Of a stretch of DNA of 64,000 bases, positions 9,785 to 20,681 are shown in pieces (the first letter of the stretch is position 1; every line of letters starts with the position of its first letter). The notes beneath the pieces were generated by a model. The model saw nothing but the letters and a program-made list of their open reading frames with translations, did no database searches and was not told where the DNA came from. The DNA is taken from contig CAVYSY010000003.1 of the NCBI GenBank assembly GCA_963771175.1, forward strand, positions 1-64,000, given 5' to 3'. The stretch comes from an uncultured delta proteobacterium (GTDB taxonomy: Bacteria > Myxococcota > Myxococcia > Myxococcales > Myxococcaceae). Both the position numbers and the translations under genes were made by a program.

Positions 9785-9819
9785 ATGCTCCGAGTACCGC
9801 GGGCGGGATTCGAACCCGC
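9769..9819 (-). repeat. att-like direct repeat (3' end of tRNA-Leu(CAG) plus downstream bases)
   Basis: 50/51 identical to 19024-19074. Confidence 0.92.
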
Positions 9820-9885
9820 CACTTGGAGCCTCCGGCGCGAGTGGACCAGGCTGGATTGCCGCGCAGGACATTCGCGCTATTGGGC

Positions 9886-18086: not shown

Positions 18087-18890
18087 CTACCCGCCGGTCA
18101 CCTGGATGTTGTAGGCGACGTCATTCGACTCGGCCTCGCGGATCCACGCGATCACCCCCTCCACCAGCGCTCCGGGGTGGAGGATGAGCTTGCCCAGATT
18201 GGCCACGACCTGGTCATGCGCTTCGATGAGGGGCCCCCATTTCTCCTGAGGCAGCGGCGCGAGGAGCTCGGCCAGCAACCAGGCTCCCTCGCGCGCGGCG
18301 TCCATCGCGAAGTTGAACACCGCGTCCTCCCCGTCGGGACTGATGGCCTCGAGGCGCTTCAAGCGGGGAGAGACCTCGCCGAGCTCCACTTCAATCACGG
18401 CGACGAGCCGCGACAGGAGGGTGTTGATGCGGTGGAAGTCCTCCTTCAGCGCGGCCAGCTCCGGGCCAGGAGCCACGGTCGCCGCGGCGATGCCGAGGTC
18501 CAGGTTGATATGGGCATTCATCCCCAGCAGCAGGTGCTGAAGGATCAACGGGGAGTCCTGCTCCAGGGCGTCGAAGGCCATCTTCCACGACTTCGTCGGA
18601 GTGCCACCAGAGGACCAGATGTTCCAGGCAGCCAGGAAGCGGCTGGCGAAGACCACGTCCAGCCGCTCCATGCGGGCGTTGTCCTGGAAGACATTGCCCG
18701 CGATGATCGCTCGCCTCACGTTGACGGTGACCCGCTCGTAGAGCGCGGTGAAGTACCCGATGCGCGAAGGATTCCGCAGCGACTGGTCGATGATGTCATT
18801 GGCCTGCTGGATGACCTCGTCGATAGTCGCGGGCGGAGCGGGAGACGGAGACTGGGCGGGAGCAAGGGACGGAGAGGTGGACAGGGCCAT
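18087..18890 (-). CDS. DUF5995-like protein
   Basis: FTALYERVT, LDVVFASRF, LLLGMNAHINLDL. Confidence 0.8.
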   Translation of the reverse strand: MALSTSPSLAPAQSPSPAPPATIDEVIQQANDIIDQSLRNPSRIGYFTALYERVTVNVRRAIIAGNVFQDNARMERLDVVFASRFLAAWNIWSSGGTPTKSWKMAFDALEQDSPLILQHLLLGMNAHINLDLGIAAATVAPGPELAALKEDFHRINTLLSRLVAVIEVELGEVSPRLKRLEAISPDGEDAVFNFAMDAAREGAWLLAELLAPLPQEKWGPLIEAHDQVVANLGKLILHPGALVEGVIAWIREAESNDVAYNIQVTGG

Positions 18891-19023
18891 GGATCTCGAT
18901 AGCACGGAATCAAGGAGCAGGCCGCTTGGTGTTGAGGCTTACGCCGCCACAGAGCCAACAGGTCCAGGCTCCTGTCGCGCACCTCATGGGAGGGCGGCCT
19001 GGGCAGGCGTGTGCCCAAAGGGG

Positions 19024-19074
19024 GGACGGGTCTTGTCAAATGCTCCGAGTACCGCGGGCGGGAGTCGAACCCGC
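19024..19074 (-). repeat. att-like direct repeat overlapping the tRNA-Leu(CAG) 3' end
   Basis: Matches 9769-9819 except for one T-loop base. Confidence 0.92.
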
Positions 19075-19124
19075 AACCTCTGCGTTCTGAACGCAGCGCC
19101 TCTACCAGGTTGGGCTACCGCGGC
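19050..19124 (-). tRNA. tRNA-Leu(CAG)-like, short variable loop, no encoded CCA
   Basis: GCCGCGG TA GCC CAACCTGGTAGA GGC G CTGCG TTCAGAA CGCAG AGGTT GCGGG TTCGACT CCCGC CCGCGGT A. Confidence 0.88.
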
Positions 19125-19127
19125 ATG

Positions 19128-19201
19128 TGCCGAAAGCGGGAGTCGAACCCGCAACCTCCAGACTCTCGTTCTGGCGCCTCTACCAATTGGGCTACTCCGG
19201 C
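19128..19201 (-). tRNA. tRNA-Leu(GAG)-like, atypical (C33, short variable loop)
   Basis: GCCGGAG TA GCC CAATTGGTAGA GGC G CCAGA ACGAGAG TCTGG AGGTT GCGGG TTCGACT CCCGC TTTCGGC A. Confidence 0.8.
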
Positions 19202-19225
19202 GACTGGGACTGCTGGACTGCGAAG

Positions 19226-19297
19226 AGCGGTCGGCGGGAGTCGAACCCGCGTTCTCCTGAGTGGCGCTCAGGGGCCTCACCTCTCGGCCACGGCCGC
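19226..19297 (-). tRNA. tRNA-Gly(GCC)-like, atypical (G32/C33/C38, C5-A68 mismatch)
   Basis: GCGGCCG TG GCC GAGAGGTGA GGC C CCTGA GCGCCAC TCAGG AGAAC GCGGG TTCGACT CCCGC CGACCGC T. Confidence 0.72.
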
Positions 19298-19310
19298 GTG
19301 GATGACCCGG

Positions 19311-19350
19311 AAAAGCAAGAGGCCGGGTCCCCTCTCGGGAGCCCGGCCTC
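19311..19350 (-). terminator. Intrinsic terminator/attenuator hairpin upstream of the tRNA array
   Basis: GAGGCCGGG-CTCCC-GAGA-GGGGA-CCCGGCCTC followed by TTGCTTTT. Confidence 0.85.
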
Positions 19351-19387
19351 CACTCACCGTGCCTCGTCTGGGACGAGGACGCGGAAG

Positions 19388-19537
19388 TCAGAGTCCGGGC
19401 GGTCGACCGCGAAGCGACTCGAGGCCGAGCAGGACATCCAGGGTGGTGGCCAGACCGTTGCGCGAGAGCGCATCGATGCCAGTGTCAACGTCGTTGAGGT
19501 GCTTGGGGTTCATCGGGCTCTGCTTCGTCACCGTCAT
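19388..19537 (-). CDS. Putative attenuator leader peptide (49 aa)
   Basis: SD AAAGGAG; MTVTKQSPMNPKHLNDVDTGIDALSRNGLATTLDVLLGLESLRGRPPGL; its 3' end is complementary to the terminator 5' arm. Confidence 0.65.
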   Translation of the reverse strand: MTVTKQSPMNPKHLNDVDTGIDALSRNGLATTLDVLLGLESLRGRPPGL

Positions 19538-19611
19538 GGTCACCGCTCCTTTCATCGAGAAAAGACGCGGCCGGAATTCGTTCCTGACAGGCGACAGCGC
19601 TCGCACGCTCC

Positions 19612-20681
19612 TCAAGCCGCCGTCAGCCGCCCGCTGCGGTACAGGAGCACGAGGAACAGCGGCCCGCCGAGGAGCGCCGTCACCGAGCCCACGGGAAGCT
19701 CCTTCCCGAACAGCGGGAGGGCCAGCCGCGCCAGCAGGTCCGCGAGCAGGAGGAACGCCGCGCCCCCGAGCGCGGAGAGCGGCACGAGCAGCCGCTGGTC
19801 CGGCCCGAACACGAGACGCAGCAGGTGGGGGACGATGAGCCCCACGAAGCCGACGAGCCCCGAGAGCACCACGGCCCCCGCCACGCTGACGCTCGCGGCG
19901 AGCAGCAACGTCCGGCGCGTCCAGGCCACGGACACGCCGAGCGAGGCCGCGTCTTCATCGCCCAAGGAGAGCAGGTTGAGCCGCCCCGACAGCGCCGAGC
20001 ATCACGCCGATGGCCCCCACCTCGAGGAGCGCGCTCAGCACGAGCGTGTGGAGGTACTCGTAGCCGAGGTTCCCCACGAGCCAGTAGAGGATCGCCTCCA
20101 GTTGGGTCGGATTGGAGAGCGTCTTGATGAGGGTGATGACCGCGGAGGCGAAGGCGTTGAAGACGACGCCGATGAGGAGCGCCGCATAGGGCGTGCGGCC
20201 ACCATGGCCCCGGCTGACGACGAGCACGAGGAGCATGGACGCCGCGGCACCGAGGATGGCGAAGAAGGCCGGAGCGGAGCTGCGCGCCAGCATTCCACCG
20301 AGCCCAGGAGCCACCTCGCCCACGGTGGCGAGCCCCAGGGCCACCGCGATGGTGGCGCCCAGGGCCGCGCCACCCGAGACGCCGAGCACGAAGGGGTCCG
20401 CCAGGGGGTTGCGCAGCACGCCCTGCAGTGTGGTCCCGGAAGCGGCGAGCCCCGCGCCGACGATGGCCGCCAGCACGGCGCGTGGCAGGCGGACGGACCA
20501 GAAGATGCTGGCGTCCTTGGACCTGGGCCCCTCGAAGAAGGCGGCGTGAAGGGGAGATGGACTGATCTCCAAAGCGGACGGCCAGGACGAACGCCACGAG
20601 CAGCAGGACGAGGAACGCCCCGCAGAGCCCGAGCGCCCACCCCGGAGTGAACGGCCCCCTGCCTCTGCCCGGCTCACGCAT
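19612..20681 (-). CDS. FecCD/BtuC family ABC permease (frameshifted)
   Basis: VRLPRAVLA, LRNPLADPFVLGVSGGA, GFVGLIVPH, ELPVGSVTALLGGP. Confidence 0.9.

Follow-up and report, generated by a model that had tools for sequence, protein, structure and literature searches.

Why should a short open reading frame (ORF) with a strong ribosome-binding site, followed by a predicted transcription terminator, stand directly ahead of a row of transfer RNA (tRNA) genes? The question is raised by a locus in contig CAVYSY010000003.1 of an uncultured member of the Myxococcaceae (assembly GCA_963771175.1), of which we analysed positions 1 to 64,000; this whole stretch is called the window below, all coordinates are positions in it, and all elements of the locus lie on its minus strand. 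The genome to which it belongs comprises 9.8 Mb in 58 contigs and is 82% complete. A preliminary description, made from the letters alone, had read the locus as ribosome-mediated attenuation of three tRNA-like genes. The answer that we consider probable keeps that core and makes it more specific: a ribosome-mediated attenuator that stands before supernumerary tRNA genes and senses the supply of its own cognate aminoacyl-tRNAs. All support for this answer is computational, and the anatomy of the unit, its conservation, the match between leader codons and tRNAs and the geometry of the pairings are established in that way.

The leader, the terminator and their alternative pairing

Leader-peptide attenuation is textbook knowledge for amino-acid operons, and the parts that define it are all found here: an ORF with a ribosome site, a predicted terminator between it and the regulated genes, an alternative pairing that a ribosome could mask, and regulatory codons that match the function of the genes behind (Table 1). 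The 49-codon ORF with its strong Shine-Dalgarno sequence, the GC-rich terminator with its U-tract, and the three tandem tRNA genes that begin 13 nucleotides (nt) beyond it were already named in the preliminary description, and their positions hold. So does the proposed architecture, which is conserved as well: no conserved promoter-like block is seen other than the one upstream of the leader, and between that block and the tRNA genes stands the terminator. Of the 49 leader codons, 13 are decoded by the three downstream tRNAs, namely nine Leu codons (CTC, CTT and CTG) and four of the five Gly codons (GGC and GGT).

The terminator is predicted as a GC-rich stem-loop (19351-19318) of 14 bp with one bulged C (-29.7 kcal/mol, z -2.39), with a U-rich tail, UUGCUUUU, that runs to 19311. 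A terminator consensus scan of 18500-20200 detected none, a miss that we attribute to the bulged C in the stem. The end of the ORF, GCCCGGACTC (19400-19391), is complementary at nine of ten positions to GAGGCCGGGC (19350-19341) in the terminator 5' arm, exactly as had been noticed in the preliminary description. Because the terminator motif GAGGCCGGG..CCCGGCCTC is exclusive to copies of the leader (it occurs three times in the 9.8-Mb genome, always behind one) and the unit is conserved genus-wide, we place this pairing above chance. The single long antiterminator hairpin that had been postulated is also recovered when both conformers are folded: RNA ending within the terminator loop is predicted to form one hairpin of 19412-19384 with 19333-19357 (-41.6 kcal/mol, z -1.79), and with the 3' arm included the minimum is the terminator conformer (-61.0 kcal/mol). 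A small hairpin just behind the stop codon (-10.5 kcal/mol, z -2.68) is present in both conformers and is a candidate RNA polymerase pause hairpin.

From these parts we infer how termination and read-through, pausing, the promoter, negative feedback and the natural trigger could be connected. Transcription would start at the conserved block upstream of the leader, which would be translated as RNA polymerase advances, the polymerase possibly being held at the small post-stop hairpin. With cognate aminoacyl-tRNA in ample supply, a ribosome at the last codons and the UGA would mask 19412-19384, the terminator arms would pair, transcription would stop at about 19311 and the tRNAs would not be made. 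If the ribosome were instead delayed at Leu, Gly or Asp codons 6 to 20 before the stop, or never loaded, the ORF end and the 5' arm would pair, and the resulting long hairpin would preempt the terminator and let the tRNA genes be transcribed. Fresh tRNAs should then hasten leader translation and turn the unit off again, closing a negative feedback loop. The window unit would be one module of a dispersed second tRNA set, in which each module has its own codon-matched leader.

The promoter-like block is almost without variation among 20 aligned units, and it is retained before a tRNA array on contig C25 of the same genome despite the loss there of the long leader and the terminator; it probably serves as the promoter. 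A sigma-70 consensus scan of 18500-20200 returned zero promoters. Within the block, at 19584-19573, lies an inverted repeat, GGAA-N4/5-TTCC, which is found at the same place in other units and reads GGAAT-GG-ATTCC in the copy on contig C54. It may serve as the operator of an additional control mediated by a protein.

Table 1. Elements of the locus in 5' to 3' order along the transcript strand, in window positions; the threshold of the Rfam tRNA model is 29 bits.
Feature	Position	Strand	Details
Promoter-like block TGTCAGGAA..CGCGTCTTTTCT	19589-19558	minus	conserved across units
TGTCAGGAA	19589-19581	minus	5' part of promoter-like block
CGCGTC TTTTCT	19569-19558	minus	3' part of promoter-like block, after GGAA..TTCC inverted repeat
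Shine-Dalgarno AAGGAG	19551-19546	minus	spacer of 8 nt to ATG at 19537
Leader ORF MTVTKQSPMNPKHLNDVDTGIDALSRNGLATTLDVLLGLESLRGRPPGL	19537-19388	minus	49 codons and TGA (19390-19388)
Antiterminator 5' strand (predicted)	19412-19384	minus	last eight codons, stop and 4 nt; core 19400-19388
Small hairpin after stop	19384-19357	minus	stem CCUCGUC/GACGAGG 19378-19362, extended by CCG/CGG
Intrinsic terminator (predicted)	19351-19311	minus	5' arm 19351-19337, loop 19336-19332, 3' arm 19331-19318, U-rich tail
tRNA-Gly(GCC)	19297-19225	minus	ARAGORN; 73 nt; Rfam 50.3 bits
tRNA-Leu(GAG)	19201-19127	minus	ARAGORN; 75 nt; Rfam 52.3 bits; A73; loop ACGAGAG (C33)
tRNA-Leu(CAG)	19124-19049	minus	ARAGORN; 76 nt; Rfam 60.4 bits; A73; canonical loop

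Directly behind the U-tract, a conserved CCGGGTC (19310-19304) is complementary to part of the terminator 3' arm and pairs with the ORF end in the full-length fold; it might act in the processing of read-through precursors. In one public RNA run (X1, an oligo-dT soil library), contigs from a related strain fall within window 19030-19543: they span the leader ORF, and a single contig of 890 nt extends from 19382 through the terminator and all three tRNAs to 19030. The public runs, none of which contained half of the sampled words, consist of assembled contigs of related strains, and such contigs show neither RNA ends nor RNA levels. The depths of the X1 contigs (~120 versus 10.5) are unsuited to ranking the parts of the unit, and carry-over of DNA is possible.

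Leader codons follow the downstream tRNA genes

The window unit is conserved in all 17 other Archangium genomes, and its ribosome-site motif TGAAAGGAGCGGTGAC, allowing at most one mismatch, is present in 18 of 18 Archangium genomes, with 0 matches for the reversed control. Across the order, 33 of 201 sampled genomes carry TGAAAGGAGCGGTGAC (30 of 69 other genomes of the window's family and 2 of 132 in other families), with five matches for the reversed control in that scan. A longer pattern run over 185,579 species representatives retrieved 58 loci. Of these, 48 bear the names Archangium, Cystobacter, Hyalangium, Vitiosangium, Myxococcus, Corallococcus, Pyxidicoccus or Myxococcaceae/Archangiaceae; the other ten are without myxobacterial names, and the estimated chance expectation for the pattern is about 12. 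From 85 fetched regions we parsed 91 leader-like units. In 88 of the 91, tRNA genes begin within 300 nt past the stop codon, and terminator arms are recognisable in 79.

Two further copies of the leader, hairpin and terminator are found in the window genome itself, with other tRNA sets behind them. One, a paralog of 49 codons (87% DNA identity) on contig C54, has the same hairpin and terminator and is followed by tRNA-Glu(ctc) and tRNA-Asp(gtc). The other, on contig C26, is a leader of 57 codons ahead of a 13-tRNA array; it shares the ribosome site and the N-terminus MRTMTKQSTMNPK with the window leader, and its remainder is unrelated and rich in Pro, Arg, Ser, Phe and Tyr. The version of the window unit found in relatives runs leader, terminator, Glu, Asp, Gly, Leu, Leu, and the window and C54 loci are therefore the two halves of a duplicated five-gene unit, the three-gene locus of the window being a derived split. 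A fourth module, on contig C25 (56114-56497; Trp, Ile, Val, Ala, Ala), has the promoter-like block and a 13-codon mini-ORF without a terminator.

The principal new finding comes from comparing each leader with the tRNA genes behind it. Across 27 leader clusters, the fraction of codons cognate to the leader's own array is 0.353, versus 0.223 (standard deviation 0.016) when the pairs are permuted, the observed fraction being reached in 0 of 10000 permutations. With the conserved N-terminus and the last four codons excluded, the figures are 0.373 and 0.201, and when the clustering is coarsened to 22 or to 16 clusters the count is 0 of 20000. Taken anticodon by anticodon, cognate codons are commoner in leaders whose array has that tRNA for 31 of 31 anticodons (for example Tyr, 2.12 versus 0.15, and Cys, 1.80 versus 0.23), the differences for cgt, gtt and tgc being marginal. 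When the arrays of a single genome are compared, 68 of 79 leaders score highest, after normalisation, with their own array; about 28 would be expected by chance. The choice among synonymous codons points the same way: the presence of an isoacceptor goes with a larger share of its codon within the amino acid in 13 of 16 comparisons (pooled counts, without a statistical test), most strongly for rare codons (TTG, 0.29 versus 0.04; GAA, 0.55 versus 0.15; CGG, 0.30 versus 0.14). The direction of the codon match is consistent at all levels examined.

Individual units make the match visible. An array reading Gly-Gly-Ala-Leu-Pro-Pro-Asp-Ala has a leader in which Ala, Pro, Leu, Gly and Asp abound, and the leader of a Glu-Glu-Arg-Val array is rich in Glu, Arg and Val. 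Two Cys codons and one Trp codon occur in a leader that stands before an array with tRNA-Cys and tRNA-Trp, and a 22-codon leader with six Arg codons stands before tRNA-Arg. The suggestion in the preliminary description that the window unit responds to Leu or Gly starvation gains strength from this comparison, because leader codons track the identity of the downstream tRNAs over 88 units.

The same attenuator could also serve as a general sensor of slowed translation, set off by ribosome-targeting antibiotics or a shortage of ribosomes, with the codon match as a by-product or as fine tuning. Any ribosome delay ahead of the last codons would yield read-through in this geometry, the cognate share of leader codons is just about 35-38%, and the available text of PMC8421152 describes a long tRNA array in Anabaena whose expression is switched on by impaired translation. 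For a general sensor, leader and array need not agree, yet the agreement extends to every anticodon compared, including the rare residues Cys, Trp, Tyr and His and the rare codons TTG and GAA, and most leaders pick out their own array within the genome; we regard this alternative as unlikely. Since the codon match argues for it, a shortage of particular tRNA species should matter to the sensor of cognate supply that we prefer. The unit alone cannot discriminate between starvation, loss of tRNA and general slowing, because what the ribosome reads is the supply of aminoacyl-tRNA.

Geometry of the proposed switch and comparison with known leaders

The position of the cognate codons suits the proposed switch. 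Their density is highest, at 0.38-0.48, between codons -20 and -6 relative to the stop, and a ribosome stalled in that stretch would expose the ORF end; in the last five codons the density is low (0.20). The best partner within the ORF for the terminator 5' arm ends no more than 7 nt from the stop in 55 of 79 units, and in 39 it extends precisely to the stop, whose UGA pairs with a UCA immediately ahead of the arm; counted by cluster, the median distance from partner to stop is at most 6 nt in 16 of 22. TGA is the stop codon in 86 of 86 leaders. The complement of the 5' arm is kept in differing reading frames, giving peptide endings as different as ..PPGL, ..PDSC, ..PVPC and ..PGLF; what is conserved is therefore the RNA pairing and not a peptide motif. 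In the lineage of L018 and L095, an A to G substitution in the 5' arm has matching changes in both the 3' arm and the ORF end. A Pro-Pro-Gly stalling motif in the peptide was considered and set aside, the same RNA complement being present in other frames and peptides, for which RNA pairing is the simpler account.

Comparative structure was assessed on a MAFFT alignment of 75 sequences, following the suggestion in the preliminary description that relatives be searched and covariation examined. The search found the unit conserved throughout the genus, and covariation supports the small hairpin alone: in eight of its nine pairs both partners change, and on four of five measures the observed value is attained by 0 of 500 shuffles. 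Antiterminator pairing is seen in 68% of cells, versus 30-53% in slid registers. The case for the antiterminator comes from the folding, the conserved position at the ORF end and the few matched changes, since in GC-rich RNA the potential to pair is by itself weak evidence.

Several observations weigh against the attenuator. On the same alignment the terminator stem is nearly invariant, that is, conserved without covariation beyond the column-shuffle control, and the antiterminator is paired in 68.3% versus 68.2% of column-shuffled cells (212 of 500 shuffles), counts that are lowered because classes ending ...CTCTTCTGA and ...CTGCTGA are misaligned. Shuffling the ORF tail, a weak control, leaves 6.6 of 10 arm bases paired versus 8.7 in the real sequences, and the z-scores of the single-sequence folds are modest (-1.8 to -2.7). 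No terminator is recognisable in 12 of the 91 units. As for the codon match, 11 of the 79 within-genome comparisons fail, most of the misses falling between duplicated units with near-identical arrays; three of the 16 codon-share comparisons run contrary to expectation; and the permutation figures overstate independence because the units are related by descent. The sensor cannot separate the two tRNA pools, since the housekeeping tRNAs have the same anticodons. Finally, the first 12-25 leader residues are conserved well above what codon sensing needs, which might reflect a nascent-peptide effect or an RNA element.

Variants of the terminator were seen among the units. The U-tract is replaced in L100, and either the terminator 3' arm is deleted, leaving the 5' arm abutting tRNA-Glu, or the whole terminator is gone in the second units of L121 and L125 and in L066, L073, L085, L086, L093 and L098. 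On their sequence, L100 and these terminator-deficient variants are predicted to be constitutively expressed.

The conserved leader N-terminus also bears on the alternative of a functional peptide gene that ends in a terminator of its own, with tRNA expression independent of it or due to leakage. In most classes residues 1-25 follow M.T..(K/L)(Q/T)SPMNP..LNDT..GIDAL, and this is kept across genera. Ten gapless orthologs have 13, 12 and 19 variable sites at the first, second and third codon positions, the third being the most variable, with 223 synonymous and 229 nonsynonymous single-nucleotide differences, a pattern compatible with translation of the ORF under moderate constraint. All 21 homologs in the databases are nameless or listed as "hypothetical protein", the named organisms being mostly Archangium. 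Conservation of the N-terminus across classes and genera, moderate purifying selection and annotated homologs would all be at home with a functional peptide. Against it, the middle and C-terminal parts differ wholly between classes and track tRNA content, the C-terminus is kept as an RNA complementarity in varying frames, and nearly all copies stand directly before tRNAs; the ORF has zero Pfam or NCBIfam family matches; and the short gap between the U-tract and the first tRNA, 13 nt, has no conserved promoter-like block. We therefore give a functional peptide very little credence.

A T-box riboswitch was also rejected as a candidate: in a search of 18500-20000 at E values up to 1, Rfam returned eight matches and no T-box. 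Only three of the eight, the tRNAs themselves, reach their family threshold, and the five subthreshold matches (Plastid-ycf2, three times, YrlA and a Tymo tRNA-like element) overlap the tRNA genes. The units nevertheless resemble T-boxes in that the sensing of specific tRNAs would control terminator read-through before genes of the translation apparatus, whereas a T-box binds the tRNA directly and needs no ORF.

The attenuator with its codon-matched leader has closer counterparts in E. coli, where trp, his, leu, thr, pheA and pheM-pheST are leader-peptide attenuators of amino-acid operons and of pheST. With these the units would share a short translated ORF, a pause-type hairpin, a mutually exclusive antiterminator and terminator, and regulatory codons so placed that stalling frees the antiterminator strand and the supply of cognate aminoacyl-tRNA is read out. 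They differ in their targets, which are tRNAs rather than enzymes or a synthetase; in having, instead of one repeated codon, many kinds of codon that correspond to a multi-tRNA array; and in an antiterminator strand that contains the stop codon. Nor do they have an obvious upstream partner, so that a start-codon mutant is predicted to be constitutively on and not super-attenuated. Leader ORFs of the erm/cat type and those of ABCF resistance genes are antibiotic-sensing attenuators, in which likewise stalling in a short upstream ORF remodels the RNA and induces genes that relieve a translation problem; in those leaders the ribosome halts at particular peptide or drug contexts and the controlled genes encode resistance proteins, whereas the leaders described here vary with tRNA content.

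The control type is known, and its application to tRNA genes with a codon-by-codon match appears to be new. In full-text literature searches we found no report of leader-peptide attenuation of tRNA genes or of a tRNA-tracking leader family, in agreement with the earlier remark that no description of such a module in myxobacteria was known. The available text of the 2015 tRNA-array survey (PMC4758250) contains neither "myxo-" nor "leader", and the words "attenuat-", "leader" and "terminator" are absent from the available text of PMC8421152. If the attenuator reading is right, the units would regulate tRNA supply by direct feedback at the resolution of codons, account for the way in which tRNA arrays acquired horizontally stay silent yet useful, offer about 90 natural pairs of sensor and output for studying the readout of ribosome speed codon by codon, and make the function of long tRNA arrays testable in the genetically tractable Myxococcus and Corallococcus.

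Lineage of the tRNA genes and neighbouring features

The preliminary description called the three genes non-canonical and tRNA-like. The first part of that wording is accurate, in that both tRNA-Leu are short and Gly(GCC) and Leu(GAG) have C33; the second is not, for the genes encode genuine tRNAs. Neither Leu(GAG) nor Leu(CAG) has the long variable arm. The anticodon loop of Gly(GCC) is GCGCCAC, and its acceptor stem has one C-A mismatch; the gene carries U73 with G1-C72, C2-G71 and G3-C70, which we take to be the bacterial glycine identity set. In the genome as a whole, 96 tRNA genes are predicted, made up of a normal housekeeping set and 23 closely spaced extras at four loci. Housekeeping Gly(gcc), Leu(gag) and Leu(cag) exist and have 47 of 81, 52 of 83 and 51 of 87 aligned columns in common with the window tRNAs. 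The genome's housekeeping tRNA-Leu are long, at 82-86 nt, and among 491 array tRNAs of the units all tRNA-Leu measure 74-77 nt. No tRNA-Ser occurs in any module (array tRNAs of L065-L147 and L208).

Similar tRNAs are found on mobile elements. The tandem Leu genes of the window share 72% identity with short tRNA-Leu genes that are likewise arranged in tandem in 194 mycobacteriophages (Bixzunavirus), and they match a 21-tRNA array on a Nostoc plasmid in which the Gly(gcc) loop is identical. In the phage and plasmid searches the matches are limited to the two Leu tRNAs (query positions 426-572), with none for the leader or the terminator. Because of the short tRNA-Leu matches in phages and the Nostoc plasmid and the identical Gly loop, the window tRNAs belong to the horizontally spread long-array lineage. 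According to the available text of PMC4758250, a tRNA array unit is defined by 20 or more tRNA genes, packed at 2 or more per kb. The window locus, with three tRNA genes in 249 nt, falls short of 20 genes; the largest module of the genome has 13, and the four modules together have 23. Like the members of such arrays, the window tRNAs are supernumerary and distinct from the housekeeping isoacceptors, and they have relatives in arrays of other phyla and of mobile elements.

In the available texts of PMC8421152 and PMC10272220, the long array of Anabaena is silent until translation is impaired and is controlled by promoter direct repeats and a repressor. The myxobacterial units share with that and other long arrays a second, horizontally spread tRNA set beside the housekeeping one, with short tRNA-Leu and the same Gly loop. 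Unlike in Anabaena, the set is split into modules of 2-18 genes, often dispersed, each with a leader and a terminator. The proposal in the preliminary description of a stress-inducible tRNA module accordingly has a precedent in the stress-induced arrays of cyanobacteria, which are repressor-controlled there.

Deviant anticodon loops are a fixed property of the array species and not a peculiarity of the window. Position 33 is other than U in Gly(gcc) (37 of 37), Asp(gtc) (26 of 27) and Val(cac) (14 of 15), Leu(gag) has C33 in 19 of 19, and Asp(gtc) additionally carries U at position 37. It is hardly credible that the locus is a decaying remnant of an acquired array, with non-functional tRNAs and regulation free of selection: C33, the short tRNA-Leu, the C-A mismatch in tRNA-Gly, the units without terminator, 3' arm or U-tract and the split of the five-gene unit could be read as decay, but the deviations are fixed per isoacceptor across genera and common to the Nostoc plasmid array, the unit is kept in every Archangium genome, and 23 of 26 array tRNAs of Anabaena were aminoacylated in vivo upon induction, according to the available text of PMC8421152.

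Taking the attenuator as the control element, we tentatively suggest a use for these loops. The modules may form a self-sensing back-up in which the matching replacement tRNAs alone are induced when housekeeping tRNAs are cut, modified or depleted, for example by anticodon nucleases or tRNA-targeting toxins of, for instance, phages, prey or rival myxobacteria. Replacements with C33 or U37 may resist such attack; the deviant loops in question could be those with C33 in Gly(GCC), Leu(GAG), Asp(GUC) and Val(CAC) and with U37 in Asp. Phage tRNA sets replace host tRNAs cut by anticodon nucleases, according to the available texts of PMC10264068 and PMC11555353. They too consist of extra tRNAs with deviant anticodon loops, the mycobacteriophage tandem tRNA-Leu being the closest phage match; unlike them, the window genes are chromosomal and conserved in a bacterial family.

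Two features of the neighbourhood were recorded as well. The 3' half of tRNA-Leu(cag), together with 24 nt of downstream flank (19049-19095), is repeated directly at 9785-9830 on the minus strand, at a distance of about 9.2 kb and in the same orientation, an arrangement that resembles the two ends of an element inserted into a tRNA gene. No integrase was found between these repeats; the genes there encode a LysR regulator, a pirin, an NAD-binding protein, DUF6544 and DUF5995 proteins, and a large lytic enzyme with M23, GH25 and peptidoglycan-binding domains. Just upstream of the leader, also on the minus strand, lies a gene for a FecCD-type permease (19612-20677), which is broken into two ORFs covering profile positions 16-193 and 204-311, the split being either a frameshift or an assembly error.

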